Shown: positions 1 to 15,545, counted from the first letter of the stretch. The stretch: 16,989 bases of DNA from a virus (IMGVR_UViG_2778261502_000004:1-16989), one strand, 5' to 3'. Made by a program: numbers and translations. The notes: generated by a model from the letters alone, not told the origin.

Positions 1-489
1 TCAAATCAAGCATCGCACTCTGAAGCAAGTAGCCATCTGCCTGCTTCCTTTGATCTGCGAGAAGTTTGTGGCAGTGATCACCAATCCCCCCTGTGCGCGA
101 GCAGCTTTCAGTCCAGCTTTTGTTCGTTCAACAATCAGTTCACGCTCCATTTCAGCCAGGGCACCCATCACATGAAAGAAAAAGCGTCCCATTGAGGTAC
201 TGGTATCAATTGAATCCGTCAGACTACGAAAGTTGATGCCTCGTTCGCGCAACTCCTCCACCAGCACGACAAGATGCCGCATACTGCGCCCCAGCCGATC
301 CAGCTTCCAGACAACCAGAGTGTCACCTTCCGATAATGTCCTGAGCAGTTTTTTCAATCCCGGCCTTTCGGACTTTATACCGCTTATCTTGTCTTCAAAA
401 ATCAGCTCGCATCCTGCACAGTTCAGCGCATTACGTTGTAGATCTGTGTTCTGGTCATTTGTTGACACACGTACATAGCCAATAAGCAT
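1..489 (-). CDS. pin: Serine recombinase / DNA invertase (Pin-Gin-Cin-Hin family); catalytic domain intact, C-terminal tail does not look like the usual HTH DNA-binding domain (possible frameshifted pseudogene)
   Basis: ORF 1..525(-); real start likely ATG at 489 (MLIGYVRVSTNDQNTDLQ, catalytic Ser in VRVSTNDQ) with GGGAG 7 nt upstream; last ~28 residues (GLVITATNFSQIKGSRQMATCFRVRCLI) differ from the conserved GRIGGRRPKL...STLYK tail; stop at 1..3. Confidence 0.8.
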   Translation of the reverse strand: MLIGYVRVSTNDQNTDLQRNALNCAGCELIFEDKISGIKSERPGLKKLLRTLSEGDTLVVWKLDRLGRSMRHLVVLVEELRERGINFRSLTDSIDTSTSMGRFFFHVMGALAEMERELIVERTKAGLKAARAQGGLVITATNFSQIKGSRQMATCFRVRCLI

Positions 490-543
490 GGTAGATCTCC
501 CTGACAAAAGCAGGGATGATGCCATTTGCTCGTTATTTCTACA

Positions 544-569
544 TTTTCATAAACGTTGGTTTGGGAGAA
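544..569. repeat. Candidate invertase crossover site (pix/gix/cix-like), left boundary of invertible segment
   Basis: TTTTCATAAACGTTGGTTTGGGAGAA with core AAACG-TT-GGTTT; inverted copy of the site at 2114..2139; the central dinucleotide is complementary between the two sites as inversion requires. Confidence 0.6.
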
Positions 570-914
570 GCGGCGAAAAGGGATGTGGGCACAGGAGATA
601 ATCAGATACCGGATATGGGAGCATTCGCTTCTGGTTCGGGATGGTTCAGGCTACCAGGTGGATATATTGTTCAGTTTGGCACTTTTTCAGGAAACACGAC
701 CCGCTTTATCAGTGGACACTTCCCTATACCATTCCCTAATCAGCCGATGGTTTCAGTCAGTGTTATGTCTGATGCCGTTCAGTCAGACCCGTCGAATCCT
801 GCCCCGCAGGTTTTGTCTGTAAATTTTGAACATATCAGTAATTCAGCGTGGCGTGTGGCAACCAGTGATATCTCACAGCAATACAGATTCAGTTATATTT
901 CGATAGGATGGTAG
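570..914 (+). other. Start-less alternative tail-fibre C-terminal cassette (Sv'), expressed only after inversion
   Basis: ORF 516..914(+) opens with [24 protein letters not shown], the same junction peptide found inside the tail-fibre gene ([24 protein letters not shown]), then an unrelated C-terminus; no credible own start or RBS. Confidence 0.65.
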
Positions 915-916
915 AA

Positions 917-1357
917 ATGCAGAAATATATTTTCAGTGCCGATAAAAATGCGTTTTTCCCTGTGGAGCTTAAAATCGCTTATCAGGAATCCGGCGAATGG
1001 CCCGATGATGGAATCGAAATTGACGACACTGTTGCCGCCGAATTTATGAAGGAAGCACCAGAAGGAAAATACAGAGGCGTCATCGACGGAATGCCTGCAT
1101 GGATTGATATTCCACCGCCAACTCACGAGGAACAAATTGCCGCAGCCGAACTGGAAAAGCAGCAATTGATTGATCAGGTCAACGAATACATAAACAGTAA
1201 GCAATGGCCTGGTAAAGCGGCGATTGGTCGCCTGAAAGGTGAGGAACTGGCGCAATATAATTTGTGGCTGGATTATCTGGATGCACTGGAATTGGTAGAT
1301 ACTTCCAGTGCTCCAGATATTGAATGGCCTATACCTCCGGGGGGACAGGCCAGTTAA
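917..1357 (+). CDS. Tail fibre assembly protein (Tfa/U-like), partner of the alternative fibre cassette
   Basis: MQKYIFSADKNAFFP...GMPAWIDIPPPT...WPIPPGG, typical Tfa family features; AGGA 8 nt upstream of ATG 917; converges on the second tfa. Confidence 0.8.
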   Translation: MQKYIFSADKNAFFPVELKIAYQESGEWPDDGIEIDDTVAAEFMKEAPEGKYRGVIDGMPAWIDIPPPTHEEQIAAAELEKQQLIDQVNEYINSKQWPGKAAIGRLKGEELAQYNLWLDYLDALELVDTSSAPDIEWPIPPGGQAS

Positions 1358-1754
1358 TATTCTCTGGGTCGGTTGTCACATCAGTCGCCTTAATATCATT
1401 CTTATACGTCAGCCACGCCGACAGTTTTGCTCTGTTGGCGTCGCTAATTTCTCCCAGCATCAACTCTGTACGCCAGTCGAGCATCACATCATCAGCATGA
1501 GACAGTAGTTGCTGGCGTTTATTTTCTGCGACCTGAACTAACTCTTCTTTTGTTGGAGGGGGAATATCAGCCCAGGCTGGCATTCCATTCACGCTGGAGA
1601 GAATTTTCCCCTGCGGCCATACACCACCGTATTCCGCTCTTACGGTATCGCTGATTGCAACGGCATCTGATAAATCCCAGCCAGCATCGATATATTCCTG
1701 CATTAGGGACTCGGGAAAAAATGACAGGTTTGCGGGAGACCATAAAAATTCCAT
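1329..1754 (-). CDS. Tail fibre assembly protein (Tfa/U-like), partner of the currently expressed fibre
   Basis: MEFLWSPANLSFFPE...GMPAWADIPPPTKEE...NWPVPPEV; lies immediately downstream of the fibre gene on the same strand. Confidence 0.85.
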   Translation of the reverse strand: MEFLWSPANLSFFPESLMQEYIDAGWDLSDAVAISDTVRAEYGGVWPQGKILSSVNGMPAWADIPPPTKEELVQVAENKRQQLLSHADDVMLDWRTELMLGEISDANRAKLSAWLTYKNDIKATDVTTDPENINWPVPPEV

Positions 1755-1756
1755 AA

Positions 1757-2416
1757 TTAACGCCCTATTGAATACACCATTACATCCAGTGAGCTGGATG
1801 TATATGTACTGGTTGCAAGAAATGAAGAAAGATTGTTATTGGATGCACTGACAAATGGACTCGCCGCCACGTTAATGGTGCGGCTTTCAGTGTTGGCCCA
1901 TGAGCCAATAACCGTTGATGTGAACGGGATTAAATAGTTTGCTGATACTGTAGCCCCTGTAGTACCAGATGCTGCAGGAATACTTACTCTTTTCCACTGC
2001 AACATCCAGTTCTGAGGAAACCGTACATATCCTCCATTCAGTTCATTCCTGAATTCAAAACTACCCATATCCGGGATCTGATTTCCCCCTGTGCCCACAT
2101 CCCGTTTTGCCGCCTCTCCCAAACCAAGGTTTTCGAGAGCCGTTTTCACCGTGCCATCCGCTTTGATATCGCCAAACGGATTTTTGCGGCTTAACAGCAG
2201 CGCACGAAGCGCGGTAAGCAGCTGGTCGTGCCGCGCCTTCTCGAGACTGGCACCGGATGCCTCCACAACGCTGCAAAGCTCCTCCTGCAACATGTCAAAG
2301 TAGTCATCATCCAGATCGGTGGCAGGCGTGCCAGTCTGGGGGTTACCACGGGTAAAACCGTTTTTACCCGCGCCGAACTTATCCTTCTGCGCGGTTTTCG
2401 TGTCTATACGATGCAT
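1757..2416 (-). CDS. Side tail fibre protein (Mu S / e14 Stf-like): conserved N-terminal part joined to a variable C-terminal receptor-binding part
   Basis: 219 aa; N-terminus [47 protein letters not shown] is the conserved tail-fibre N-terminus as I recall it; the crossover site lies inside the gene at the [12 protein letters not shown] codons. Confidence 0.85.
2114..2139. repeat. Candidate invertase crossover site (pix/gix/cix-like) inside the tail-fibre gene, right boundary of invertible segment
   Basis: CTCTCCCAAACCAAGGTTTTCGAGAG with palindromic core AAACC-AA-GGTTT; ~60 bp of inverted homology with 556..616 follows on the inside of the segment. Confidence 0.65.
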
Positions 2417-2419
2417 GGA

Positions 2420-3004
2420 TTACTCCGGATATTTAAAAATTACGTAGGTATGCGACGGGCAGAGTTTGTTAAGCACGCACTCGACAACGGTGTCCCCCCA
2501 GATACGCAGTGCGGAATCACAGGGATCGCCACATGTCATCCAGGTGGTGTTGGTGGCGGCTGGCATGTTGATCTGCCAGTAATACCGCCATTCAGGCGCG
2601 TTCACAGCGTCAGTACAGGCCGATGAGCAGGTGAACGTGCTTTTGTCGTATCGCGTGATGGTGGCATCTGGTCTGCCCAGGGCAGCAAGCTGTGCAAGAT
2701 AAAAATCCTCGTTGATGCCGCCCGCCAGGTTAACCTTCGCATCCAGCCGTTGCTGACGCTGGCGAAGGGTCTGTGTCCCTGCGGGAATACATTCATCCGG
2801 CAGACCGCACAGACGCTCCCAGCGGTTTATCAGTTCAGTGGTGGTGCGCGGATCCAGCTCCCGCATCAGGGCATCCGCACGCTGATGAACGCGGGTTAAT
2901 GACGGTGCCGCACCGGCAATCGCCGGATCGCTGGCTGACCACGCCGGACCGGGGGGCAACAGTGCCGACAACAGACGGATGTAATCATCGTTTGTCACGT
3001 CCAT
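2420..3004 (-). CDS. Tail/baseplate protein of the YmfQ / Mu gp48 type (DUF2313-like)
   Basis: 194 aa [24 protein letters not shown]...[13 protein letters not shown]; sits directly upstream of the tail-fibre gene as ymfQ does in e14; recognised from memory, not aligned. Confidence 0.75.
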
Positions 3005-3140
3005 GAAATCGTCCCCAGTACCGCCAGTTCATTTTTTGCAATGGAGATATTGTCTGCCGGTGCAAGCAACTGATGGCTGTATTCCCCGTTCGCACCGGAA
3101 ATCGCCTCACTGATACGCGATACCTTCAGTTCTCCCTGCG
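2995..3140 (-). pseudogene. C-terminal remnant of the gene that normally precedes ymfQ (baseplate J-like by synteny)
   Basis: Open frame ...[46 protein letters not shown], stop overlapping the ymfQ-like start (ATGGACGTGA); no start codon; about 48 codons only. Confidence 0.3.
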
Positions 3141-3269
3141 GATATAGGGTTTGTCGCGGTTCGGGTATTCATGTGTTTCCACACGGCGACCGGTTCCCGC
3201 ACTTTCTTCTTCAACCTTAAACGGCACGCCGCGAAATGACGCGTCCTGAAGCCTGTCTTTCCACGTCAT
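3126..3269 (-). pseudogene. N-terminal remnant of a Mu N-like DNA-circularisation / tail protein, cut off after 47 codons
   Basis: MTWKDRLQDASFRGVPFKVEEESAGTGRRVETHEYPNRDKPYIRREN* with GGAG RBS; the SFRGVPF...GRR..HEYP.RD.PY motif matches the N-terminus of this family as I recall it; expected position after the tape measure in Mu-like order. Confidence 0.5.
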
Positions 3270-3330: not shown

Positions 3331-3861
3331 TTAGCGAGTCAGAAACAACGAATCTTTATACTTTTGCTGTTGTTCATTTAAATACTTAGCTGTTTCATCG
3401 CTGGCAAATGGAAATATTACCGTATTTTTAGGCATGGTAATTTCTTTTTTGTCCAGCGTCAGAGTAAACATAGGAACATACTGAGCAGAGTAACGCACCG
3501 CAGAAACGAGCTCTAGTTTAGACTCTTCAATAACACTTAAATTATCCAGGCTAACTTTCTCTTCATCTTTTTTCTTTGACGCATTTAAAGTTTTTATTAC
3601 TTTATTTAATTTCTCCTGAAAATCCTCCTTAAAGTTTTCAGGATTGCCGTCGACAACAAGAATCTGTTCACCCTGATTATCTGGAAAAATAATCTTTGCA
3701 CTTATCAATTTATTTTCTTTATAAACATCACCAAGTTTTATGGCTCCTCCAGATAACTGAATAATATGTTCATCTTTAAAGGAGATGTTGCCAGAGATTA
3801 TGAGAGATGAAAAAATAGCCGCTGCTCCAAGAATTACACTTGCTGTGATATAGCCTTTCAT
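3331..3861 (-). CDS. Hypothetical membrane-anchored or secreted protein encoded by an AT-rich insertion
   Basis: 176 aa; hydrophobic N-terminus MKGYITASVILGAAAIFSSLIISG then a Lys/Glu/Asp-rich domain; visibly AT-rich between GC-rich tail genes; own terminator. Confidence 0.6.
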   Translation of the reverse strand: MKGYITASVILGAAAIFSSLIISGNISFKDEHIIQLSGGAIKLGDVYKENKLISAKIIFPDNQGEQILVVDGNPENFKEDFQEKLNKVIKTLNASKKKDEEKVSLDNLSVIEESKLELVSAVRYSAQYVPMFTLTLDKKEITMPKNTVIFPFASDETAKYLNEQQQKYKDSLFLTR

Positions 3862-3952: not shown

Positions 3953-5785
3953 CTACCAAAATCGGGTATAGCCAACATCGTGATTTATATCAATGCCACT
4001 GGAGCGTGTTTCCGTAACCCGCATACCTGGTGGCATATTTATAAATGATACCTTGATCTCACCATCAACTTTTGGCGCGGTAGCTTTATTAATCATGAAG
4101 GGATTCGAGCCTGTGGCATCGGAGGCGTTGTTTGCCTGAGCCGGATCCACCGCCGGATAAGGAGTGTATCCCCGTGCCGGTATTCCCGTCCCATAAGCAT
4201 CATAAGCACCCGCGCCCCACTGCGCCGAGTTAATGGTATCGACCGTGTCACCGGAACTGCCGGTAAACCATTCAATAATCGGCTTCAGCTTATCCCACAT
4301 ATCCTGAAACCACTTAACAACCGGTCCCCAGTTATTGATCACCATCCCCAGCGGCGACCAGGCAAAAACCTTCTTCAGAAGTTCCCGGCCAGCCTCAAAA
4401 TAAGGACCAATGGTTTCCCAGAGCTTCTTGAAATAAGGTCCGACAACATCCCAGTTAGTGATAATTAATCCCGCAGCCAGAGCAATCGCCGTCGCAATCA
4501 TGCCAATCGGCGTCATCGACATGATCCTGCTGACAATACTGATGGCACTGCCCACGCCCATCAATCCCAGTTTCAGAATCGCAAGACCGGCAGCAAGCCC
4601 GACGACGCCGCGAATAACCCGGGGATTTTCATCCGCAAACTTCGTGAATTTTTCCCCCAACTCCCCCAGCCATTGCGTGATATTTTTAGCGTCACCAGAA
4701 AATGCGCCGCCAATAGCTGCAAGACCGTTAGTTGCGGTCCCCGTCATTGCCTCCCACAGGTTGGACAGCGTACCAAGCTGTGCCTGAACACGTTTATTCA
4801 GGCTGGCCTGTTTATTCATCTTCTGCTGGATCTGATCGTAACCATCCTTTCCTTTATCGATCAGAGCATTGACCACCTGAAGGGTTTCGGCATCATCACC
4901 AAATATTGCCTTAAGTACACCTGTTCGCTTAACGTCGGTCAGTTTTCGCAGCTTTGCCAGTTGCTTAAACATGTTATCAAGACCGCCAAAACTCCCTTTG
5001 CCGTCAGTAAAATCGAGCTGCACTCCGAGTTTCTGGCGGGCCATGACTTTATTGACGTCCCTGATTTTCTTAACGCTTAATCCGGACTGGATAACTTTTC
5101 GCAGGGCATTACCTGCCGACTCCCCGTTCATCCCCATCTGATCCATCATGACGCTGATAGGGGCAAGGCTCTGTGCAGCCTGAAGTCCGTCCTTATTCAC
5201 CATCTTCAGAACAGAACTGGTTTTAGTGAAGAAGGACAACATGTTGGTATCGTCAACGCCCAGATAAAACGCCTTCTGGATAGTGTCGAACAGTCCCATC
5301 ATGTCTTCTGACGCAGTTCCGGTAGCATCCTGCATCTTTGCAGCAAACTCAGCAGCCGCTTCCGGTGTTTTTTTCAGTTGTACCGCAAGATAAGCTGTCG
5401 CTTTACCCACACCACCAAGAATGTTTTCTGCCGGGATCCCCTGACGCACCAGCATCTGCATCATGTTCTGGAAATCAGCCGTTGTACCGGGTAGCTGGTT
5501 ACCCAGGCCAATAGCCAGTTTATTGATGTCCTGAAAGCTCTTTCCAACCTCGCCGTTCGCATCCATCATGGCGACTTTCAGCCCGGTGGCGGCGTTTTCC
5601 TGATCGGCATAAGATTTCAGGGAAAGCGTCAGACCCGCTGCCAGTCCGCCACCAAGCGCCAGCCCACCCTGTGACGCTTCTTCCGCCTGGCGTTTAAATC
5701 CCCGGATTTTCTTTTGCATTTTCGACAGCGCGGGAGAAAGCCTGTCGACACCGGTGATCAACGCCTTAAGCTCAAATTCAGCCAT
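3953..5785 (-). CDS. Phage tail tape measure protein
   Basis: 610 aa, Ala/Gly/Leu-rich with internal hydrophobic stretches; follows the frameshifted chaperone pair, the conserved tail-gene position. Confidence 0.85.
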   Translation of the reverse strand: MAEFELKALITGVDRLSPALSKMQKKIRGFKRQAEEASQGGLALGGGLAAGLTLSLKSYADQENAATGLKVAMMDANGEVGKSFQDINKLAIGLGNQLPGTTADFQNMMQMLVRQGIPAENILGGVGKATAYLAVQLKKTPEAAAEFAAKMQDATGTASEDMMGLFDTIQKAFYLGVDDTNMLSFFTKTSSVLKMVNKDGLQAAQSLAPISVMMDQMGMNGESAGNALRKVIQSGLSVKKIRDVNKVMARQKLGVQLDFTDGKGSFGGLDNMFKQLAKLRKLTDVKRTGVLKAIFGDDAETLQVVNALIDKGKDGYDQIQQKMNKQASLNKRVQAQLGTLSNLWEAMTGTATNGLAAIGGAFSGDAKNITQWLGELGEKFTKFADENPRVIRGVVGLAAGLAILKLGLMGVGSAISIVSRIMSMTPIGMIATAIALAAGLIITNWDVVGPYFKKLWETIGPYFEAGRELLKKVFAWSPLGMVINNWGPVVKWFQDMWDKLKPIIEWFTGSSGDTVDTINSAQWGAGAYDAYGTGIPARGYTPYPAVDPAQANNASDATGSNPFMINKATAPKVDGEIKVSFINMPPGMRVTETRSSGIDINHDVGYTRFW

Positions 5786-5960
5786 GTGTGCGTTTCTCCT
5801 GCTCTATCCTGTTTGCCTGACTGACCAGTAAGGGAATTTCACTGATCGGCATATTCAGCAATTCGAAAGGATTAATGCGCCAGTAGCTGGCGCAGTCAAA
5901 GAAGCGATCAGTGAGGTATTCAGCCGTCAGGCCTGGAGGAAAAAACCAGCCACAAGCCAC
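5778..5960 (-). CDS. -1 frameshift extension of the tail assembly chaperone (G/GT-type fusion product)
   Basis: ORF in the -1 frame overlapping the chaperone 3' end and the tape-measure start; entered through the slippery heptamer at 5939..5945. Confidence 0.6.
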   Translation of the reverse strand: MACGWFFPPGLTAEYLTDRFFDCASYWRINPFELLNMPISEIPLLVSQANRIEQEKRTHG

Positions 5961-6196
5961 GCCGCTGCATTCAGGTCTGCCGGAGACATCTGGTCGACAG
6001 AGTTTTGCGGCACTTTCGCCAGCCGCACAATGTATTTCGACACCACATGCGCCAGAAGTCTGACGGACTCATCCTGATTCATCTGGTAGGGATACCCCAG
6101 CTCGCGGACATCTTTCCCGGTGGGCTCATCAAACTCCAGTACGGAGAGTGTCTCGCCATGAGCGGTAATCGGTTTCTTTAACTCAAGCTCTTTCAT
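5927..6196 (-). CDS. Tail assembly chaperone (Mu gp41 / lambda G-like)
   Basis: 89 aa between tube and tape measure; ends in the slippery site. Confidence 0.65.
   Translation of the reverse strand: MKELELKKPITAHGETLSVLEFDEPTGKDVRELGYPYQMNQDESVRLLAHVVSKYIVRLAKVPQNSVDQMSPADLNAAAWLVAGFFLQA
5939..5945 (-). other. Programmed -1 ribosomal frameshift slippery heptamer T_TTT_TTC
   Basis: Minus-strand GCT GGT TTT TTC CTC sits 4 codons before the chaperone stop; the -1 frame continues FFPPGLTAEYL... to 5778. Confidence 0.6.
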
Positions 6197-6552
6197 TACT
6201 GGTAATCCCCTTCTTCACCGTGGAACTCAAGATCGACCGTGCCTTCTTCGGCATTATGGTTCGCTTCGCCGTGCAGCCAGGCAGACGACAGTACATAGAC
6301 CTGACCGTTCGCCAGCTCGGCAGTGATGGTCATCTCATCAGACGAGGTGATTTTGCTCACCGGAAAATTCTTCGGCACCTTGAAGGTCCCTTTGACATAG
6401 GGCGCACGGTGAGTTTCCTTGCGGTCCACTGAACCGTCCAGGCCGATGATGTCATCATTGACCGTCCTGTTCATGGGCACCTCAATGCCGCCGGTCAGCG
6501 ATAGCTGCTGACCGTCAATTTTGAAATAACAGGTTCCCCCGATACGGGCCAT
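6196..6552 (-). CDS. Phage tail tube protein (Mu M-like)
   Basis: 118 aa MARIGGTCYFKIDGQQLSLTGG...; TAATG overlap with the sheath stop; sheath-tube-chaperone-tape measure order. Confidence 0.7.
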   Translation of the reverse strand: MARIGGTCYFKIDGQQLSLTGGIEVPMNRTVNDDIIGLDGSVDRKETHRAPYVKGTFKVPKNFPVSKITSSDEMTITAELANGQVYVLSSAWLHGEANHNAEEGTVDLEFHGEEGDYQ

Positions 6553-7457
6553 TATGCAGACTCCTCTGAATACTGAAGACGGAACTGGTTAACCAAGGCA
6601 AAGACACGCAACTGGTTAACATAGTCAGGCGGGAACAGCGTGTTCAGGCGGTTCGGATCGCTGGCATCACGCTCCACAACCAGGTACTGCTTAAACAGTT
6701 CGTAGTTTTCCACGATCCCCGCACGCTCAAGCTGACGGTAGGTTGCCAGCAGTTCCCCTTTGATTACCGCCGGGGTGACAATCGCCTGACCGGGACCAAA
6801 GCGGGTACCGTCGCTGGCAAGCTTGTGACGCCCGTACTTACTGGTAATGACGGATTTCAGTTTGCGCAGTACATACGCACTGGTATGCAGCGTCTCGCTG
6901 TCGAGGTAGCTGTTATCCGCAACCCCGTAAGCATTTTTCCTGTACGTGGTGACATCACGCTGAATGCGCAGCCCCCCGCTTTCGACATACGCCGTTGCCA
7001 CGCCATGAGACAGCAGGGTCTGCTGCTCGGTCATCGTGAACCGTTTCCCCTTCGGCGCAGGCAGCATACCCACCAGCTCACCGGTCTGCGTGGGACGTGC
7101 CGGATCGTTGCGGATAAACACCGCTGCGCGGGCGGTACGGCTTGCCGCCAGCTCGTCGGCAGGCGTCTGGGTCTCTTTTTCGTACCCCGCCAGGGTGATG
7201 TGCTGCTGGTTAAACTGGTCACCTGCGTTCACCAGTTCTGACAGTGTGCCGGTCTTTGCCGTATACACATGACCATACAGCTGACGCGCATAGCTCCAGC
7301 GACCGCTGGTATCGTTCATCTCGGTCACTGTCCCACTTCGAACCGTAGCCGCGCTGATGACGGGATTGTCCTGGTTTGTATTGCTTCCAGCCTTCGCTTT
7401 TGTGGCTTTCGCAGTAGCCTGACGGGTCTGTGGTTGTAGAGCGGCAGCCGCGAACAC
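6552..7457 (-). CDS. Contractile tail sheath protein, 5'-truncated; the upstream part of this ORF is probably out-of-frame read-through from an HNH gene remnant
   Basis: 301-aa ORF with GTG start and no RBS; C-terminal two-thirds sheath-like by synteny and by motifs I recall (RKNAYGVADNSYLD, GQAIVTP, VERDASDPNRLNTLFPPDYVNQ); first ~40 residues are low-complexity Ala/Thr/Lys; sheaths are normally over 370 aa. Confidence 0.6.
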   Translation of the reverse strand: MFAAAALQPQTRQATAKATKAKAGSNTNQDNPVISAATVRSGTVTEMNDTSGRWSYARQLYGHVYTAKTGTLSELVNAGDQFNQQHITLAGYEKETQTPADELAASRTARAAVFIRNDPARPTQTGELVGMLPAPKGKRFTMTEQQTLLSHGVATAYVESGGLRIQRDVTTYRKNAYGVADNSYLDSETLHTSAYVLRKLKSVITSKYGRHKLASDGTRFGPGQAIVTPAVIKGELLATYRQLERAGIVENYELFKQYLVVERDASDPNRLNTLFPPDYVNQLRVFALVNQFRLQYSEESA

Positions 7458-7485
7458 GGCAGGCTTTTGGGGTTCGAGGGGGCAT
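7219..7485 (-). pseudogene. N-terminal fragment of a phage HNH endonuclease fused out of frame to the sheath gene
   Basis: MPPRTPKACRVRGCRSTTTDPSGYCESHKSEGWKQ...RGYGSKWD shows the C-x3-GC...YC-x2-H...RGY..W pattern of the HNH N-terminus; AGGA 8 nt upstream of ATG 7485; similarity is lost after about residue 52. Confidence 0.4.
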
Positions 7486-7592: not shown

Positions 7593-8102
7593 TTAACCAA
7601 ATACAATGAATGTTCCAAAAGATGCTAATGATATATTTATCAGAGAATCCATACGAGCCTTAATTTCTGGCGTATCCTCGACCTCAGTACGCCATTGATT
7701 GACTGCCTCAATCATATCTCGACAAAACACATCTATTTGCAACTGAAGTTTGCCATTTAAGTGATTTAAATGCACTTGGCAATTTGGCCTAGGTGGTGGT
7801 GTAAAATTAAACTGCATCATTCTTTTCCTGTTCTCTGGATCCTGTCCAGCATGTAAACAAGAACAACGATACAGCCAAAAATCATCCGCATAAAATCGAC
7901 ACTGTTCATGTGTACCGGATGTATATTTATTTTCAAGATAACGAGAAACCCAATCTTTATACCATTTCCCTGTTTCACCCTTACCTATTTTGGGACGTTC
8001 AACGCTCCTGCAAATATCAGGCATAGCAAGAGCCATAAACAATGCCGCTAACCAATTCTCACTTTCAATTGAAGATTCAATTGATTTTATAAACCTTTCC
8101 AT
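7593..8102 (-). CDS. Hypothetical Cys/His-rich protein encoded by an AT-rich insertion between the lysis cassette and the HNH remnant
   Basis: 169 aa MERFIKSIESSIESENWLAALFMALAMPDICRS...YRCSCLHAG...; visibly AT-rich; no family recognised. Confidence 0.6.
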   Translation of the reverse strand: MERFIKSIESSIESENWLAALFMALAMPDICRSVERPKIGKGETGKWYKDWVSRYLENKYTSGTHEQCRFYADDFWLYRCSCLHAGQDPENRKRMMQFNFTPPPRPNCQVHLNHLNGKLQLQIDVFCRDMIEAVNQWRTEVEDTPEIKARMDSLINISLASFGTFIVFG

Positions 8103-8168: not shown

Positions 8169-8420
8169 TTATTCATTTTGATATCCTATTTTTAGAATAT
8201 CCTTTTTATCTCTATTGCATTGCGCTAATGCAGATAACAAACTCGCATTCAGTTCCAGGCTAGCACCATATGTCAGTGGACTAGGTACAACTGGAATCGG
8301 TGTTTCAGAAGTCAGGCTGGCTGGCAGTGGTACCGCCGGAGTGTTCACGTAAACTGTCCGCGTACTTCCGCAACCGGTCAGCAGCGGCAGCAGGCACAGG
8401 ACGTGAAGCACAATCATCAT
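8169..8420 (-). CDS. Outer-membrane spanin lipoprotein (Rz1-like), overlapping the 3' part of Rz in another frame
   Basis: MMIVLHVLCLLPLLTGCGSTR... with lipobox LLTGC followed by a Pro-rich region; start inside Rz. Confidence 0.65.
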   Translation of the reverse strand: MMIVLHVLCLLPLLTGCGSTRTVYVNTPAVPLPASLTSETPIPVVPSPLTYGASLELNASLLSALAQCNRDKKDILKIGYQNE

Positions 8421-8697
8421 CCGCAACAGCCACTTTGATATCTTCCTGGGTTCTCTGTGACTCCAGTGCAATCTGCTGTTTTGCATGCTGGTTAGCCTCT
8501 ATAACTGTATTGATGATTTGCAGTGATTGCAGAACGTTACGGGTAATGGCAGTTGCTGATTCAGCATTTCGTATAGCCTCATCAACACGCTCCTTTTCGT
8601 GCAGATATTTGCTGTAGTAATGCCCGGCAGACCAGATGAAGGAACCAATGACGGTAACAAAGAAGGCAACAATAACCAGCTTATATCTCAGCTTCAT
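8305..8697 (-). CDS. Inner-membrane spanin (Rz-like)
   Basis: 130 aa with N-terminal transmembrane segment (LVIVAFFVTVIGSFIW) and a coiled-coil-like remainder; start overlaps the endolysin stop. Confidence 0.75.
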   Translation of the reverse strand: MKLRYKLVIVAFFVTVIGSFIWSAGHYYSKYLHEKERVDEAIRNAESATAITRNVLQSLQIINTVIEANQHAKQQIALESQRTQEDIKVAVADDDCASRPVPAAAADRLRKYADSLREHSGGTTASQPDF

Positions 8698-9157
8698 TTA
8701 CTACCCCACCAGCCTCTTTAAACCGGGAAATCAGGTCGCCAATTTTATGTTCATACTGACCGTAACCTGCACCAGGTAACGACGCCCAGATATTGCTGCA
8801 ACGATCGATAGCCTGACGGATATCACCGCGATCAATCATCGGTAAAGCGCCACGCTCTTTAATCTGCTGCAATGCCACAGCGTCCTGGCTTTTCGGAGAG
8901 AAGTCTTTCAGGCCAAGCTGCTTACGATAGGAATCCCACCAACGGGAAAGAAGCTGGTAGCGCCCGGCTGCTGTTGATTTGAGTTTTGGGTTTAGCGTGA
9001 CAAGTTTGCGAGGGTGATCGGAGTAATCAGTAAATAGCTCTCCGCCTACAATGACGTCATAACCATGATTTCTGGTTTTCTGCCGTCCGTTATCCGTTCC
9101 TTCTGACCATGCCACCATATCGAGGAAAGCTTTACGCTGAGGATTAAGATTTTGCAT
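8681..9157 (-). CDS. R: Endolysin, lambda R-type lytic transglycosylase
   Basis: 158 aa MQNLNPQRKAFLDMVAWSEGTDNGRQKTRNHGYDVIVGGELFTDYSDHPRKL..., near-identical to lambda R as I recall it; AGGGGTGA RBS. Confidence 0.93.
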   Translation of the reverse strand: MQNLNPQRKAFLDMVAWSEGTDNGRQKTRNHGYDVIVGGELFTDYSDHPRKLVTLNPKLKSTAAGRYQLLSRWWDSYRKQLGLKDFSPKSQDAVALQQIKERGALPMIDRGDIRQAIDRCSNIWASLPGAGYGQYEHKIGDLISRFKEAGGVVNEAEI

Positions 9158-9311
9158 TTTTCACCCCTGTCAGTCGTTCCCAGAAGTACGTCAGTGCAAC
9201 CGAACCCATTGCACCACTAATCCCCGCTGTCGCGAGAATCATGTAAATACTGAATCCACTTTCGATGCTGATCAGGCCACCAATAACACCGGTGAATCCT
9301 GATATCCGGTC
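9147..9311 (-). pseudogene. Start-less hydrophobic C-terminal remnant, probably of the holin gene
   Basis: Open frame ...SGFTGVIGGLISIESGFSIYMILATAGISGAMGSVALTYFWERLTGVKNAKS* ending in the ATG of R, the position of a holin 3' end; bounded upstream by an in-frame stop, no N-terminal part. Confidence 0.45.
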
Positions 9312-9486
9312 TTAAGTCAGATTTCGTAATTGCACCTGACGTGCATTGCTCAAGTTTTTTAGCCAGCACAAAACTGGCTTTTTTATAGCCATTGAAAACC
9401 AGCCGTAAGTAGCCAGGTGTTGAGCCAACTTTTCCGGCCAACTCGCCCTGCTGTTCTTTGGTTAAAGAGTCCCAATACGCTTTCAT
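9217..9486 (-). CDS. Cro-like HTH regulator (YdaS/Cro family) whose 3' end reads out of frame through the holin remnant
   Basis: Start ATG 9486 with GGAGGT RBS (MKAYWDSLTKEQQGELAGKVGSTPGYLRLVFNGYKKASFVLAKKLEQCTSGAITKSDLRPDI); the last 27 residues (RIHRCYWWPDQHRKW...) are Trp/Arg/His-rich, as expected for the wrong frame of a hydrophobic gene; divergent from cI. Confidence 0.6.
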   Translation of the reverse strand: MKAYWDSLTKEQQGELAGKVGSTPGYLRLVFNGYKKASFVLAKKLEQCTSGAITKSDLRPDIRIHRCYWWPDQHRKWIQYLHDSRDSGD

Positions 9487-9576
9487 ACAATATGTACCTC
9501 CGGTGTACATATTACATGATTAAAATGAACCTTCAAGATACTTGTACCTTAACGGTACAAGGGTTTTAATTTCGTT
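9487..9576. promoter_or_regulatory. Divergent immunity control region with two 19-bp palindromic operators and candidate pR and pRM promoters
   Basis: Operators ATGTACC-N5-TGTACAT (9492..9510) and TTGTACC-N5-GGTACAA (9542..9560); minus-strand promoter TTGAAG (9531..9536) / 16 bp / TAATAT (9509..9514); plus-strand TTTAAT at 9565..9570 lies just before the cI ATG, suggesting a leaderless cI message. Confidence 0.55.
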
Positions 9577-10251
9577 ATGAAAACAATCCATGACATCCGG
9601 CGGTCTAACGCCAGAAAACTGAGAGATGGTGTTGGCGGGAATTCTTCCTTTGCCACTATGATTGATCGCGAGCCAACCCAGACCAGCAGGTTTATGGGAG
9701 ATGGTGCTACTAAAAATATCGGTGACAGCATGGCACGACACATCGAAAAATGTTTCGACCTACCTGTCGGATGGCTCGATCAAGAACACCAGACAACGAA
9801 CATCACAAAAAAACCTGATGTTTCAATCACTAATAAACAAATCACATTAGTCCCTGTCATATCATGGGTACAGGCCGGAGCATGGAAAGAAGTTGGATAT
9901 TCTGAGGTTGATTTGAGCACAGCAGAAACGTATCCCTGCCCTGTACCCTGTGGGGAAATGACTTATATCTTGCGGGTGATAGGTGATTCAATGATTGATG
10001 AGTACCGCCCGGGAGACATGATTTTTGTCGATCCTGAAGTACCTGCCTGCCACGGTGACGACGTTATTGCATTGATGCACGATACAGGTGAAACCACCTT
10101 CAAAAGGTTAATAGAAGATGGGACACAGCGTTATCTCAAAGCGTTAAACCCAAACTGGCCTGAGCCTTACATTAAGATCAACGGTAATTGCTCTATAATT
10201 GGTACAGTGATTTTCTCAGGAAAACCAAGAAGATACAAAATCAAAGCCTAA
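9577..10251 (+). CDS. CI-type prophage repressor: phage-CI HTH N-domain plus LexA/S24-type autocleaving C-domain
   Basis: 224 aa; N-terminal ...GDSMARHIEKCFDLPVGWLDQ; C-terminal domain with Ser in VIGDSM and Lys in TFKRL, the S24 catalytic dyad context. Confidence 0.9.
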   Translation: MKTIHDIRRSNARKLRDGVGGNSSFATMIDREPTQTSRFMGDGATKNIGDSMARHIEKCFDLPVGWLDQEHQTTNITKKPDVSITNKQITLVPVISWVQAGAWKEVGYSEVDLSTAETYPCPVPCGEMTYILRVIGDSMIDEYRPGDMIFVDPEVPACHGDDVIALMHDTGETTFKRLIEDGTQRYLKALNPNWPEPYIKINGNCSIIGTVIFSGKPRRYKIKA

Positions 10252-10263
10252 TCAATGTTTATG

Positions 10264-10288
10264 AACCTGCTTCGGCAGGTTTTTTTAT
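10264..10288 (+). terminator. Rho-independent terminator after cI
   Basis: AACCTGC-TTCG-GCAGGTT stem-loop followed by TTTTTT. Confidence 0.8.
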
Positions 10289-10290
10289 AC

Positions 10291-10323
10291 TTGACAATGT
10301 ACCTTTGAGATACATAATGTACC
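10291..10323 (+). promoter_or_regulatory. pL-like early-left promoter with overlapping operator
   Basis: TTGACA (10291..10296) / 16 bp / CATAAT (10313..10318); operator ATGTACC-N5-GATACAT at 10297..10315 with the same 7-5-7 layout as the cro–cI operators; extra half-site ATGTACC at 10317..10323. Confidence 0.65.
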
Positions 10324-10409
10324 CAAGAGAAACAACGAACAGGCAGGACGCCCACGAAGTAGCCGCCTGGGGCATATGAAGTCCAGGATGATTCGTTAGC
10401 AACAAAAAA

Positions 10410-10485: not shown

Positions 10486-10692
10486 ATGCACAAAACAGAA
10501 CCCAAAATCGTCGCGCCTGGCTACACAGATGAGGAAATTTATGAGTGGATGACAAAGAAGCTGGCAGCTATAAACCAGCTTCGTGAAGTGCTGTCTTATC
10601 GACAGGAAACAATAGACTCCTTAAAAAAACTGGATCAGGAAATCACGGTTTTATCACAGGATGTTACTTTAGATATTGTGCAGACAAATTAG
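10486..10692 (+). CDS. Small hypothetical protein, first gene of the pL-like transcript
   Basis: 68 aa MHKTEPKIVAPGYTDEEIYEWMTKKLAAINQLREVLSYRQETIDSLKKLDQEITVL... ; GAGGAG RBS 7 nt upstream; not Arg-rich, so not an N-type antiterminator. Confidence 0.55.
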   Translation: MHKTEPKIVAPGYTDEEIYEWMTKKLAAINQLREVLSYRQETIDSLKKLDQEITVLSQDVTLDIVQTN

Positions 10693-11098
10693 GATCCCAT
10701 TCATTTTCGTCAAAATCATCAAAGTGATGAATTTGTGATCTCCAGTCTCGATAATCTAAAAATTTCTGGGCGGTTACGCTTATTTTATCAAGTGTGAGTT
10801 CATCCTGAATTGAAAGAAGAAGTTCATCAAATTTCATCTCATTAATCTGTTTTGGCATCCAGTGATGCTTCATCAGAATAAGGTGAACCAGAGCCTTTTT
10901 CCCATTCAACTGATTATAGGGAGTGCCGAATTTCTTCCGGTGCTCATGTAAGACAAGGTCCAAAAGAGTAAGTAATGTTGCCCTTGATTCAACTTTGCTT
11001 ATTTCGACTGATGACACTACCCCACTGATTTCAATGCCCCGATACTTTCCAACATTTTCACAGTGGGATTTGTACAGCGTATAGATATTACCGGACAT
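10664..11098 (-). CDS. Hypothetical protein on the opposite strand, AT-rich, 3' end overlapping the 68-aa gene by 29 bp
   Basis: 144 aa MSGNIYTLYKSHCENVGKYRGIEISGVVSSVEISKVESRATLLTLLDLVLHEHRKKFGTPYNQ...; AAGGA-like RBS; soluble; no family recognised. Confidence 0.55.
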   Translation of the reverse strand: MSGNIYTLYKSHCENVGKYRGIEISGVVSSVEISKVESRATLLTLLDLVLHEHRKKFGTPYNQLNGKKALVHLILMKHHWMPKQINEMKFDELLLSIQDELTLDKISVTAQKFLDYRDWRSQIHHFDDFDENEWDPNLSAQYLK

Positions 11099-11113
11099 TT
11101 CTTTTCCTTTTGC

Positions 11114-11162
11114 GTTGTTGGGGATAACCAGATTAACCGAATCCTTGTTGTTGGGGAATAAC
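11114..11162. repeat. Two direct repeats just upstream of the 144-aa gene start
   Basis: GTTGTTGGGGATAACC (11114..11129) and GTTGTTGGGGAATAAC (11147..11162), 17 bp apart. Confidence 0.5.
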
Positions 11163-11382
11163 TAGGTCCACCTCGCCTGATGTGGCTAAAAGCAGGCACA
11201 TAACAGCTAAGTATTTTCAACCAGAGAGAATCCTTAGCGTTGTGGTGAATGCGGCTCAGCGCACGCGGGTTAAGGTTGAGGCTGACAGTCGACCTTCTGT
11301 GGATACCCACCCGCCTGGTGTGCAACCTTCGCCAGGCACCGGGAGGCACCCGGCACCACAACTTTATGCTGTGTGTAGTCTT

Positions 11383-11429
11383 GGCGGTACCAGCTTGTAC
11401 CCTTGCTTCCGGCTGGTACCGTCCTTTTT
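11383..11429 (+). terminator. Strong rho-independent terminator inside the early-left leader (tL1-like)
   Basis: 10–12 bp GC-rich stem (CGGTACCAGC / GCTGGTACCG), 17-nt loop, then TTTTT. Confidence 0.7.
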
Positions 11430-11431
11430 AC

Positions 11432-11516
11432 AAAACAGAGAAGAGCATCACCGGACGACGGGCTCATAACCCAATCCATCCGGGCGGCAGTCACCGCAGG
11501 TGTTCTTCTCTGTTTT
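11432..11516. repeat. 16-bp inverted repeat enclosing a GC-rich ~53-nt segment, right after the terminator
   Basis: AAAACAGAGAAGAGCA (11432..11447) versus TGTTCTTCTCTGTTTT (11501..11516), one mismatch. Confidence 0.5.
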
Positions 11517-11566
11517 GTGGAGAAACTAACCGACCTTGCAGGGTCGATATGATGAGGAGCAGCAAA

Positions 11567-11929
11567 ATGGCTAGCGAACGCAGTACTGATGTGCAGGCAT
11601 TTATCGGGGAGCTGGACGGCGGCGTATTTGAAACCAAAATCGGCGCAGTTCTCAGTGAAGTCGCTTCCGGTGTGATGAACACGAAAACCAAAGGTAAGGT
11701 CTCGCTCAACCTGGAAATCGAACCGTTTGATGAGAACCGAGTGAAAATCAAACACAAACTCTCATATGTTCGCCCGACTAACCGCGGGAAAATTTCCGAA
11801 GAAGACACCACCGAAACGCCGATGTATGTCAATCGCGGTGGTCGCCTGACTATTCTGCAGGAAGACCAGGGACAGTTACTGACTCTTGCCGGTGAACCTG
11901 ACGGAAAACTCCGCGCAGCAGGTCGTTAA
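11567..11929 (+). CDS. yfdP: YfdP-like early-left prophage protein
   Basis: Likely start ATG 11567 with GAGGAG RBS, 120 aa (the ORF track extends it upstream to 11249 without support); size and position match yfdP of the CPS-53 yfdP–yfdT cluster as I recall it. Confidence 0.55.
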   Translation: MASERSTDVQAFIGELDGGVFETKIGAVLSEVASGVMNTKTKGKVSLNLEIEPFDENRVKIKHKLSYVRPTNRGKISEEDTTETPMYVNRGGRLTILQEDQGQLLTLAGEPDGKLRAAGR

Positions 11930-11994
11930 TATCGTTTTTAATTAACTGATTATTTATCTCATCACTGAATATCTTTATATAGTGAGGACTTATT

Positions 11995-12819
11995 ATGTCT
12001 CAGAACTTAGACGCAACCGCAATTAATCAAATCCATGCCCTTATTTCTGCTCAGGGTGTTAATGAAATTATCAGTAAGATTGGTGCCGATGCTGTGGCAT
12101 TGCCTGAGAATTTCCGCATTCATGATCTGGAAAAATTTAATTTAAATCGCTTCCGTTTCCGTGGTGCGCTTTCCACTGCCAGCATCGATGACTTTACCCG
12201 TTATTCTAAAGATCTTGCAGATGAAGGCACCCGCTGCTTTATCGATGCTGATAATATGCGTGCCGTCAGTGTGCTTAACCTGGGTACTATTGATGAACCA
12301 GGTCACGCAGATAACACCGCCACACTCAAACTGAAAAAGACAGCACCGTTCTCTGCTCTGTTGTCTGTTAACGGCGAGCGTAACTCCCAGAAGTCACTGG
12401 CAGAATGGATTGAAGACTGGGCCGACTATCTTGTGGGCTTTGATGCTAATGGTGACGCTATTCAGGCAACAAAAGCGGCTGCGGCTGTCCGTAAAATCAC
12501 GATTGAAGCAAACCAGACCGCTGATTTTGAAGATAATGACTTCAGCGGCAAACGCTCCCTGATGGAGTCTGTCGAAGCGAAGACCAAAGACATTATGCCA
12601 GTGGCATTTGAATTTAAATGCGTTCCGTTTGAAGGTCTGAAAGAACGTCCGTTTAAATTACGCCTCAGTATTATCACTGGCGATCGTCCTGTACTGGTTC
12701 TGCGCATTATTCAGCTGGAGGCGGTGCAGGAAGAAATGGCTAACGAATTTCGTGATCTGCTTGTTGAGAAATTCAAGGACAGCAAAGTAGAAACCTTTAT
12801 TGGTACTTTCACCGCCTGA
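11995..12819 (+). CDS. yfdQ: YfdQ-like protein (DUF2303 family)
   Basis: 274 aa; GAGGA RBS; size and order as in CPS-53; not aligned. Confidence 0.65.
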
Positions 12820-12831
12820 TTTCATTACTGC

Positions 12832-12853
12832 AAATGCCCCTGCGGGGGCATTT
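12832..12853 (+). terminator. Perfect hairpin between the yfdQ-like and yfdR-like genes (weak terminator or attenuator)
   Basis: AATGCCCC-TGCG-GGGGCATT followed by T-ATGG; short U-tract. Confidence 0.35.
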
Positions 12854-12946
12854 ATGGAAACGTAATTTACTCAATAATCGCCGGATGGTGAGGGATTCTT
12901 TTTACCAGAATTCAGCGCGGTGCAGCGCATATACGTGGAGAACAAA

Positions 12947-13483
12947 ATGTCATTTATTAAAACTTTTTCCGGGAAGCATTTTTATTATGACAGGATAAAT
13001 AAAGACGACATCGATATTAACGATATCGCGGTTTCCCTTTCAAATATCTGTCGCTTTGCCGGTCATCTTTCGCACTTCTACAGCGTCGCCCAACATGCGG
13101 TTCTTTGCAGCCAGCTGGTGCCGCAGGAATTTGCTTTTGAAGCGTTAATGCATGATGCAACAGAAGCGTATTGCCAGGACATTCCCGCACCACTGAAACG
13201 CCTTCTTCCTGACTATAAACAAATGGAAGAAAAAATAGACGCCGTAATCCGTGAGAAATACGGGTTACCTCCAGTTATGAGTACGCCCGTGAAATATGCC
13301 GATCTCATCATGCTGGCAACCGAACGCCGCGATCTCGGGCTTGATGATGGCTCTTTCTGGCCTGTACTGGAAGGTATCCCGGCAACAGAGATGTTCAACG
13401 TGATTCCACTGGCACCGGGCCATGCCTACGGGATGTTTATGGAACGCTTTAACGAGTTATCGGAGTTACGCAAATGCGCATGA
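12947..13483 (+). CDS. yfdR: HD-domain phosphohydrolase, YfdR/YfbR-type 5'-deoxynucleotidase
   Basis: 178 aa from ATG 12947 (GGAG RBS; the track's GTG at 12920 is less likely); H..H in SVAQHAVLC and HD in LMHDATEAY. Confidence 0.8.
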   Translation: MSFIKTFSGKHFYYDRINKDDIDINDIAVSLSNICRFAGHLSHFYSVAQHAVLCSQLVPQEFAFEALMHDATEAYCQDIPAPLKRLLPDYKQMEEKIDAVIREKYGLPPVMSTPVKYADLIMLATERRDLGLDDGSFWPVLEGIPATEMFNVIPLAPGHAYGMFMERFNELSELRKCA

Positions 13484-13836
13484 ATGTTTTCGAAATGGAA
13501 GGGTTTCTTCGTGGGAGATGTGTACCGCGAGATCTGAAAGTAAATGAAACAGATGCTGAATACCTGGTGCGTAAATTCGATGCGCTTGAAGCTAAATATG
13601 CAGCACAGGAAAACAAAGTAATACCAGTGTCAACTGAACTGCCACCAGCAAATGAAAGTGTTTTGTTATTCGATGCTAACGGAGAAGGCTGGCTAATTGG
13701 CTGGCGTTCTCTCTGGTACACCTGGGGACAAAAAGAAACCGGAGAATGGCAGTGGACATTTCAGGTCGGGGACCTTGAAAACGTCAATATCACTCACTGG
13801 GCAGTAATGCCAAAAGCACCGGAGGCTGGAGCATAA
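13474..13836 (+). CDS. yfdS: DUF551-type prophage protein (YfdS-like)
   Basis: 120 aa; C-terminal ...LLFDANGEGWLIGW...ITHWAVMPKAPE pattern typical of DUF551; start overlaps the yfdR-like stop. Confidence 0.7.
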   Translation: MRMNVFEMEGFLRGRCVPRDLKVNETDAEYLVRKFDALEAKYAAQENKVIPVSTELPPANESVLLFDANGEGWLIGWRSLWYTWGQKETGEWQWTFQVGDLENVNITHWAVMPKAPEAGA

Positions 13837-14141
13837 TGACCACTTTTACCGACAAAGAACTGATTAAAGAAATTAAAGAGCGTATCAGCAGCCTTGACGT
13901 GCGAGACGATATTGAGCGCCGTGCTTATGAAATCGCACTCCTATCTCTGGAAGTAGAACCAGATGAACGCGAAGCTTATGAATTATTCATGGAAAAGCGT
14001 TTCGGTGACTTAGTAGATCGTCGGAGAGCAAAAAACGGCGATAACGAATACATGGCATGGGATATGACTCTCGGTTGGATCGTCTGGCAGCAACGAGCTG
14101 GTATCCATTTTTCAACAATGTCACAGCAAGAGGTGAAATAA
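13836..14141 (+). CDS. yfdT: YfdT-like early-left prophage protein
   Basis: 101 aa; TAATG overlap with the preceding gene; size and position match yfdT as I recall it. Confidence 0.55.
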   Translation: MTTFTDKELIKEIKERISSLDVRDDIERRAYEIALLSLEVEPDEREAYELFMEKRFGDLVDRRRAKNGDNEYMAWDMTLGWIVWQQRAGIHFSTMSQQEVK

Positions 14142-14491
14142 TGGAGCCATACAGCCTCACACTCGATGAGGCCTGTCATTTTCTCAAGATATCCAGACCG
14201 ACTGCCATTAACTGGATACGCACAGGGCGTCTTCAGGCAACACGCAAAGATCCCACTAAGAATAAATCTCCTTACCTCACAACACGACAAGCCTGCATTG
14301 CGGCTCTTCAGTCTCCGCTGCATACTGTCCAGGTGAGCGCGGGTGATGGCATAACAGAGGAAAGAAAATGTCACTCTTCCGCAGAGGTGAAATATGGTAC
14401 GCCAGTTTCACATTGCCGAACGGTAAAAGATTTAAACAGTCTCTTGGAACAAAGGACAAAAGGCAGGCGACAGAACTCCATGACAAGCTAA
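14141..14491 (+). CDS. xis: Excisionase (P22 Xis-like)
   Basis: Start ATG 14141 (AGGTGA RBS; TAATG overlap with the previous gene), 116 aa [33 protein letters not shown]...; 3' end overlaps the integrase start by ~124 bp. Confidence 0.8.
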
Positions 14492-15531
14492 AGGCTGAAG
14501 CATGGCGGGTCAGCAAACTTGGTGAAATACCTGATATAACGTTCGAGGAAGCGTGTGTCAGGTGGCTTGAAGAGAAAGCACATAAAAAATCACTGGACGA
14601 TGACAAAAGCCGGATCGGATTCTGGCTTCAACATTTCGCAGGAATGCAACTAAGAGACATTACTGAATCAAAAATTTATTCAGCAATGCAGAAAATGACG
14701 AACCGGCGTCATGAGGAAAACTGGAAACTCAGGGCAGAAGCATGCAGAAAAAAAGGGAAACCTGTTCCAGAATACACGCCAAAACCAGCGTCCGTTGCAA
14801 CGAAGGCTACGCATCTTTCATTTATAAAGGCCCTACTAAGAGCCGCAGAGCGTGAATGGAAAATGCTGGATAAGGCACCAATTATTAAAGTGCCCCAACC
14901 AAAGAATAAACGGATCCGCTGGCTGGAGCCCCATGAAGCACAAAGGCTGATTGATGAATGTCCGGAGCCATTAAAGTCTGTTGTTGAATTTGCACTGGCA
15001 ACAGGCCTAAGACGCTCGAACATCATCAACCTTGAATGGCAACAAATAGATATGCAGCGCCGGGTGGCATGGATAAACCCGGAAGAGAGTAAATCAAACC
15101 GCGCAATTGGCGTTGCGCTGAATGATACTGCATGTCGCGTATTGAAAAAACAAATCGGGAATCATCACCGTTGGGTATTTGTGTACAAGGAAAGCTGTAC
15201 CAAACCAGACGGAACGAAAGCGCCAACAGTCAGGAAGATGCGGTATGACGCAAACACAGCCTGGAAAGCGGCGCTGAGACGGGCTGGTATTGATGATTTC
15301 AGATTTCACGACTTGAGACACACCTGGGCAAGTTGGCTGGTTCAAGCCGGAGTCCCGTTGTCAGTGTTACAGGAAATGGGAGGCTGGGAGTCTATCGAAA
15401 TGGTTCGTCGATATGCTCACCTTGCACCTAATCACCTTACCGAACACGCACGGCAAATAGACTCGATCCTAAACCCATCGGTCCCAAATTTGTCCCAGTC
15501 AAAAAATAAGGAAGGTACTAATGATGTGTAA
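14368..15531 (+). CDS. int: Tyrosine-recombinase integrase of the P22 / SfV family
   Basis: 387 aa [24 protein letters not shown]...; C-terminal [10 protein letters not shown]...VRRYAHL carries the catalytic His/Arg/Tyr context; ends 15 bp from the tRNA 3' end. Confidence 0.93.
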
Positions 15532-15545
15532 CTTATTGATTTAAA

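Follow-up and report, generated by a model that had tools for sequence, protein, structure and literature searches.

A cryptic prophage in the thrW gene of Escherichia coli, likely derived from an SfV/e14-type temperate myophage by three internal deletions

The stretch IMGVR_UViG_2778261502_000004:1-16989, a DNA of 16,989 nucleotides that is called the window below, is 100% identical to contig NLUV01000010.1 of an E. coli draft assembly (GCA_002233275.1). It very likely represents a cryptic prophage which is integrated in the tRNA gene thrW and which was derived from a temperate myophage of the SfV/e14 type by means of three microhomology deletions. Altogether, about 21 kb were lost through these three clean internal deletions. 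The ancestor would have been a temperate myophage whose control region was lambdoid, whose head was HK97-like and whose contractile tail was of the Mu type. Compared to L001 (NZ_AP045789), an intact 36-kb relative at the same locus, the element lacks the genes for the capsid, the portal, the protease, TerS/TerL, the baseplate proteins J, gp46, V and P, Q and the replication proteins, as well as the sheath N-terminus and the holin 5' end; the cryptic phenotype is deduced from these absences. Judged by this gene content, the element can no longer replicate, package or lyse.

The chromosomal setting is defined by two features at the right end of the window:

15546-15621, minus strand: thrW, tRNA-Thr(CGT), located with ARAGORN
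15736-16989: proA, the chromosomal right end of the window

The 3' 46 nt of thrW (15546-15591) form the core of the left attachment site attL. Their sequence is the reverse complement of the attachment core published for SfI, SfII, SfV and SfX (PMC3636060). The second site, attR, was found as a 56-bp copy of the core about 2.8 kb outside the left edge of the window, in locus L005 (13268-13323). Integration into thrW beside proA with the 46-bp core at both ends is as expected of a prophage derived from a phage of the SfV/e14 type. Between the truncated invertase gene pin and attR lies a gene for an autotransporter of the AIDA/pertactin type (733 aa, G+C content 36%; L005 10620-12821), which due to this position is prophage cargo outside the window. 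Given attR and the autotransporter gene on its left, the element comprises about 18.4 kb and starts outside the window; everything in the window to the left of thrW is prophage, namely the inner 15.5 kb. A first-pass annotation of the window had assigned positions 1-15545 to the element. The right boundary at 15545 was correct, and the left boundary has to be moved to attR.

The breakpoints of the deletions were mapped by blastn against L001; for the diverged lysis module, L004 was used. The following junctions and fused fragments were identified:

Junction 3143/3144: deletion 1, 4.1 kb (L001 4078-8225), with loss of baseplate J, gp46, V, P and most of the DNA-circularisation gene
3005-3269, minus strand: open reading frame fused at junction 1, consisting of about 50 C-terminal codons of baseplate J and 42 N-terminal codons of the DNA-circularisation gene
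Junction 7327/7328: deletion 2, 8.7 kb (L001 12021-20750), with loss of the sheath N-terminus, tail terminator, connectors, capsid, protease, portal, TerL, TerS and the intergenic region between terS and the HNH endonuclease gene
7328-7485, minus strand: remnant at junction 2, the first ~53 codons of the HNH endonuclease gene, fused to the C-terminal 52% of the sheath gene
Junction ~9301-9304: deletion 3, 8.1 kb (L001 23100-31235), with loss of the holin 5' end, Q, nin-like genes, DUF968, KilA-N, RusA, replication genes, ymfL and the cro 3' end
9144-9304, minus strand: 3' fragment of the holin gene, ~160 nt, covering positions 44-78 of the 78 positions of Pfam PF16083
9217-9486, minus strand: cro', 62 of the 66 Cro codons followed by 27 foreign codons, with the last 4 codons lost

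The sequences overlap by 2, 2 and 4 nt at the junctions of deletions 1, 2 and 3, respectively, which points to illegitimate recombination. In SfI and SfV, cos lies in the intergenic region between terS and the HNH gene, immediately upstream of terS (PMC3636060); this region was removed by deletion 2. The alignment with L001 thus bears out the earlier statements that head and terminase genes are missing, the sheath is truncated, baseplate genes are deleted and the holin is truncated. The additional claim that all functions needed for particle production are interrupted was overstated, because tape measure, tube, tail chaperone, gp48, fibre, both Tfa proteins, endolysin and Rz/Rz1 are intact.

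The tail and lysis genes that escaped the deletions are the following:

2420-3004, minus strand: baseplate wedge gp48/YmfQ (Pfam PF10076), 194 aa, intact; ratio of nonsynonymous to synonymous substitutions (pN/pS) 0.03-0.14 against nine relatives
3953-5785, minus strand: tape measure, 610 aa, intact
5927-6196, minus strand: tail assembly chaperone, intact
6196-6552, minus strand: tube, intact
6552-7327, minus strand: C-terminal 52% of the sheath (~258 of 498 codons), with Pfam sheath domains
8169-8486, minus strand: Rz1/LysC (Pfam LysC), intact
8305-8697, minus strand: Rz (Pfam DUF2570), intact
8681-9157, minus strand: endolysin, intact

The tail block 3953-7327 is 98% identical to L001 8645-12021 and yielded pN/pS values of 0.0-0.2; the lysis genes are 91% identical to those of L004. 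Compared to nine relatives, pN/pS values were in the range of 0.03-0.2 for the tail and lysis genes, and likewise for cI, int and the yfd genes. Since these values are equally low and no relaxation is visible, the substitutions arose in functional phages, and the intact reading frames are a sign of recency and not of selection. Each gene untouched by the deletions is intact, be it useful or useless.

The distribution of the junctions gives the relative age of the deletions. A search of 5,426 complete E. coli genomes, 1,042 of which carry this int at thrW, did not reveal the arrangement with junctions 2 and 3. An exact match to junction 2 was also missing from a contig collection that contains one genome per species and is for that reason uninformative here. 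The protein resulting from the cro' fusion occurs in two contigs only, which belong to the source assembly and to the assembly of one SRA run; the truncated sheath product is likewise confined to the source assembly and one SRA-run assembly. According to this sequence record, deletions 2 and 3 are private to one strain and recent. Junction 1 is identical in L015 (~8126), L017 (~3934), L018 (~8126) and L019. L017 is a more degraded remnant in thrW, and the other three are remnants at the argW/KplE1 locus. Deletion 1 is therefore older than deletions 2 and 3. Junction 1 is flanked by single nucleotide polymorphisms within 10-25 nt on either side, such that the haplotypes are mosaic right up to the junction. 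No repeat homology was detected between the breakpoints of deletion 1: the local alignment score was 18, compared to 17.2 +/- 2.3 for shuffled sequences.

A separate observation concerns L021, which carries an independent deletion that ends 57 nt and 19 nt from the breakpoints of junction 1 (L021 14150-14250). This closeness may be due to selection, a hotspot or chance.

Comparison with known phages and prophages supports the assignment of the element. The closest cultured phage is SfV, a serotype-converting phage of Shigella, with 98% identity over 65% of the query; identities are 95-98.5% to e14, in four blocks, and 97-99.4% to L001. The element shares with SfV (and also with SfI, SfII and SfIV) the thrW core beside proA, int/xis and the Mu-like tail genes. 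However, SfV is a complete phage of 37 kb in which gtrABV adjoins attP, whereas the element lacks the deleted sequences and possesses pin', the fibre segment and the autotransporter gene at this place. Prophage e14 of strain K-12 resides in icd. Both elements keep int, xis, a CI of the YmfK type, cro, gp48/YmfQ, an invertible Stf/Tfa segment with pin, and cargo. In e14, as in the element studied here, large internal deletions took away the head genes, most of the tail genes and the packaging genes. The resulting fused fragments are ymfN, beeE and jayE in e14, and J'::N', sheath'::HNH' and cro'::holin' in the element. The two are 98.5% identical in the cro-cI region (window 9301-10400, nucleotide level; ymfT-ymfK in e14), 96% in ymfQ plus the fibre N-terminus, and 95% in pin. 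On account of the near identity of the cro-cI regions, the element and e14 should be homo-immune, and their repressors should cross-regulate if present in one cell.

The differences to e14 concern integration, tail and cargo. The element is located in thrW and not in icd, and it contains an SfV-type integrase and KplE1-like yfdP-T genes. Its Pin is dead, whereas PinE of e14 is intact. The element has kept tape measure, tube, chaperone and lysis genes, which are absent from e14, but lacks ymfL, ymfM and the replication remnants of e14. The cargo consists of a membrane moron, a HEPN-like gene, an ECs1072-family gene and the autotransporter gene, compared to lit and mcrA in e14. KplE1/CPS-53, located in argW of K-12, is a small excisable remnant that keeps integrase and excisionase. 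It possesses the same early-left block yfdP-yfdT; in contrast to the element, its integrase is a different one, its attachment site is in argW, and it lacks the CI/cro region and the tail genes. L015, the KplE1-locus remnant of another strain, has the identical baseplate-deletion junction. Taken by its sequence, the element is an ordinary e14-like cryptic prophage. When thrW loci were sampled without bias by way of their int gene, the first two turned out to be full-length prophages of mosaic composition, and in one of these the structural genes are lambda-like; with so few loci, the mosaicism makes the mapping of deletions unreliable. Mosaicism of the family is evident in L032 (NZ_CP020520.1 3791500-3835300), where the left arm at thrW has the same int, xis and yfd genes and the structural genes are those of a lambda-like siphovirus in place of an SfV-like myovirus.

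Besides the phage genes proper, the window contains three AT-rich genes, here called morons 1 to 3:

3331-3861, minus strand: moron 1, a 176-aa membrane-anchored protein that matches phrog_5485 over its full length
3924-3897 and 3313-3288, minus strand: promoter-like site and strong terminator of moron 1, respectively, from a promoter/terminator scan
7593-8102, minus strand: moron 2, a 169-aa cytoplasmic protein encoded in a variable slot between the lysis genes and the HNH/terS genes
10664-11098, minus strand: moron 3, a protein of the ECs1072 family (NF033230)

All three open reading frames are of full length, and each matches a PHROG family end to end. The view that three intact orphan genes are present therefore holds with respect to the reading frames; the status as orphans has to be given up, as these families are known from phages. 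Moron 1 combines the features by which morons are recognized, namely its own promoter-like site and terminator, an atypical G+C content (0.34 compared to ~0.51 in the flanks) and variable presence: at this position, the gene is missing from L001, L006 and L018 and present in L014 and L022-L031. The exact protein occurs in 14,059 blocks of a public collection. In 10 of 10 sampled contexts, the gene is part of an intact tail operon, where it lies between the tape-measure and DNA-circularisation genes. The AF2 structure prediction of moron 1 was of poor quality (pLDDT 63) and gave no informative fold match. For moron 2, a confident all-alpha model was obtained, whose best fold matches are HEPN proteins. 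A motif R79-x4-H84 is invariant in 18 sequences down to 35% identity. Based on this model and the motif, moron 2 is a candidate for a minimal HEPN-fold RNase or an abortive-infection gene. Searches of Pfam, PADLOC and NCBIfam yielded no functional match for morons 1 and 2.

The tail fibre cassette at the left end of the window consists of the following parts:

1-489, minus strand: pin', a pseudogene of a serine invertase, 162 aa, with Pfam PF00239 confined to residues 3-135
551-2132: invertible segment, bounded by 69-nt inverted repeats (551-619 and 2064-2132) that are 88% complementary
516-914, plus strand: silent alternative C-terminus of the fibre (Pfam Gp53-like_C)
908-1357, plus strand: Tfa of the silent fibre end (Pfam Caudo_TAP)
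1329-1754, minus strand: Tfa of the expressed fibre end (Pfam Caudo_TAP)
1757-2416, minus strand: tail fibre gene, 219 aa, intact; over the N-terminal half, the identity to e14 and L001 is 96-97%

The architecture of the segment is homologous to that of the P segment of e14. Of the components of a Din-family switch, the inverted sites and two fibre ends with their own chaperones are present, and an invertase with a helix-turn-helix domain is absent. Alignment with the 184-aa PinE of L001 reveals a frameshift in pin after codon ~134 and a truncation of its 3' end, such that the catalytic Resolvase domain was kept and the helix-turn-helix domain is gone. The cassette had been regarded as intact; this applies to the repeats, both fibre ends and both Tfa genes, and not to the invertase. 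At least 21 contigs carry the pin lesion together with the adjoining autotransporter gene. Prophages whose baseplates and tails are complete (L006) are among them, and the lesion therefore predates the deletions. The element's own Pin would be unable to invert the fibre segment, and another Din-family invertase could act in trans. For e14, inversion of the segment in trans by PinQ has been reported (PMC12529663).

The control region and the left arm comprise the following features:

9493-9509 and 9543-9559: two 17-bp palindromic operators of the type TGTACC-N5-GGTACA in the spacer between cI and cro
9577-10251, plus strand: cI, 224 aa, with a LexA-like S24 domain (Pfam PF00717); the protein is identical to that of L001
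10486-10692, plus strand: hypothetical gene, 68 aa; matches to phrog_1744 / phrog_5286 cover this gene and moron 3
11209-11432, plus strand: locus of an STnc100-like structured RNA, matching the whole model Rfam RF02076 with 43.4 bits (gathering threshold 47) and E 1e-7; fold z-score -5.5
11567-14141, plus strand: early-left block of yfdP, yfdQ, yfdR (5'-deoxynucleotidase), yfdS and yfdT, all intact
14057-14491, plus strand: xis, intact (phrog_2907 excisionase); the protein is identical to that of L001
14368-15531, plus strand: tyrosine integrase, intact; one residue differs from L001

The pattern of the operators has two matches in the window, both in the cI-cro spacer, compared to 0.04 expected by chance. 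Integrase, excisionase and CI with its operators are thus of full length, as had been stated before. In contrast, the claim that the control functions were retained does not hold as a whole, because deletion 3 took Q, the replication genes and the last codons of cro. CI and the two operators would maintain the element as a silent, immune island. With Int, Xis, attL and attR intact, excision is probably still possible.

Deletion 3 places PR and cro' directly ahead of the holin fragment, the endolysin gene, Rz/Rz1 and moron 2 (9486-7593, minus strand). Due to this fusion, the genes are predicted to be under CI/SOS instead of late control. In an SOS response, CI with its LexA-like S24 domain would be cleaved, and transcription from PR would then extend through cro', the holin fragment, endolysin, Rz/Rz1 and moron 2. 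As no holin is made, this lysis transcript should be harmless.

The STnc100-like stretch is annotated by PGAP as a frameshifted hypothetical protein in L001, L014, L021, L032 and L033, and the ymfH region of e14 corresponds to it with 90% identity. According to the Rfam match and the predicted fold, 11209-11432 (context 11100-11566) is probably a prophage small RNA locus and not a pseudogene. A similarity to DicF at 11370-11424 was not significant (E 0.27).

The first-pass annotation had interpreted the gene content as selective retention of cargo and control functions in place of ordinary decay. This was not demonstrated by the analysis: the structural genes are equally intact and have equally low pN/pS values, and the recombination modules, which were thought to be retained, include the dead Pin invertase. 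A comparison of the locus across genomes, of the kind that had been proposed as a check, yielded, next to the private, recent junctions 2 and 3 and the shared junction 1, the sister remnant L017. From this remnant, cI, cro and morons 2 and 3 have disappeared, while int, xis, moron 1 and the fibre cassette persist. The moron-1 slot has been lost from L004. The observed pattern is most readily traced to three causes, which are recency (no point-mutational decay in the retained genes), counter-selection of lethal lytic functions, and the lethality of CI loss as long as lytic genes remain. The non-random losses are better explained by lytic counter-selection and CI-first lethality than by selection for cargo. 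It is known from 1,384 prophages that incomplete ones lose replication, packaging and lysis genes and are enriched in tail-fibre and integrase genes (Khan, Burmeister & Wahl 2020, PMC7744054). The element shows the same losses and enrichments and is a single instance of this trend.

Several points weigh against the history of the element as proposed here. The ancestor may have carried other cargo in the stretches that were deleted. The sizes of the deletions rest on one mosaic relative (L001), and junctions 2 and 3 on one draft and one SRA-run assembly, which may stem from the same isolate. Excision, repression and expression were all deduced from sequence. Finally, a purely neutral decay is an imperfect fit, since the breakpoints avoid non-lytic genes: if the three deletions are distributed randomly over a 37-kb model, only 0.7% of trials leave every segment classed a priori as non-lytic untouched (p=0.007). 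Given spared end blocks, 3.3% of trials leave the two internal moron slots untouched. Such numbers would be expected if the host kept the repressor, the recombination genes and the three AT-rich genes for its benefit and selection had filtered the breakpoints. In line with this, the independent remnant L021 has kept moron 1 and a slot-2 gene as islands between its own, different deletions. Moreover, moron 1 looks like an autonomous transcription unit and moron 2 looks HEPN-like, e14 provides a precedent for a useful fibre cassette (PMC12529663), and cryptic prophages can benefit their host (PMC3105296). It may be that the host gains from the morons or from the fibre cassette. Nevertheless, domestication of this kind seems rather unlikely. 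The test of breakpoint placement is based on a naive uniform model and was made post hoc on a single element, and L021 was found via sequence adjoining moron 1, which biases the sample. Dead structural genes are as intact as the putatively useful ones and have equally low pN/pS values, L017 and L004 have lost the very genes in question, and the private and recent junctions 2 and 3 left little time for selection. In addition, no PADLOC matches were obtained and the Pin invertase is dead.

A more specific proposal is that the PR fusion created a repressor-gated toxin or abortive-infection module and that moron 1 was selected as a host-beneficial envelope protein, so that a defence island would have emerged from prophage decay. 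For moron 1, selection is suggested on this proposal by at least three nearby independent breakpoints that spared it (in the lineage of the window, L017 and L021). As a whole, the proposal is improbable. It is still less probable that the deletions are mis-joins, introduced when a short-read draft was assembled from several related prophages. The contig is indeed part of a draft, SfV-like modules are present 1-14 times per E. coli genome, and junctions 2 and 3 were found only in the source assembly and in one Logan assembly that may have used the same reads. However, non-homologous joins with overlaps of 2-4 nt are beyond what a collapse of repeats produces, a second assembly (L003) is 100% identical over 9.9 kb spanning all three junctions, and junction 1 recurs in unrelated samples and loci. 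A helper-packaged, satellite-like element or a tailocin is hardly credible, even though Int, Xis, both attachment sites and several tail genes are intact and the segment with junction 1 occurs at the two attachment sites thrW and argW. With the terS-HNH intergenic region, the SfV-type cos has been deleted, so that the element contains no packaging signal; it also has no replication genes, which speaks against a satellite. The sheath is truncated and the genes for the hub, spike and wedge of the baseplate are absent, which precludes the assembly of a contractile particle and speaks against a tailocin.

Taken as a cryptic prophage shaped by three deletions, the element follows a documented rule and does not require a new principle: lytic functions are lost first, and integrase, fibre genes and repressor linger. 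For this prophage family, the analysis provides evidence that a so-called frameshifted hypothetical protein is an STnc100-like RNA. Moron 2 belongs to a rare family in which the Rx4H motif is invariant, and its model is HEPN-like; as a candidate, it could be screened for a role in defence at low cost. Finally, the occurrence of one and the same junction with mosaic flanks in remnants at two attachment sites, thrW and argW, illustrates recombination within the pool of defective prophages.

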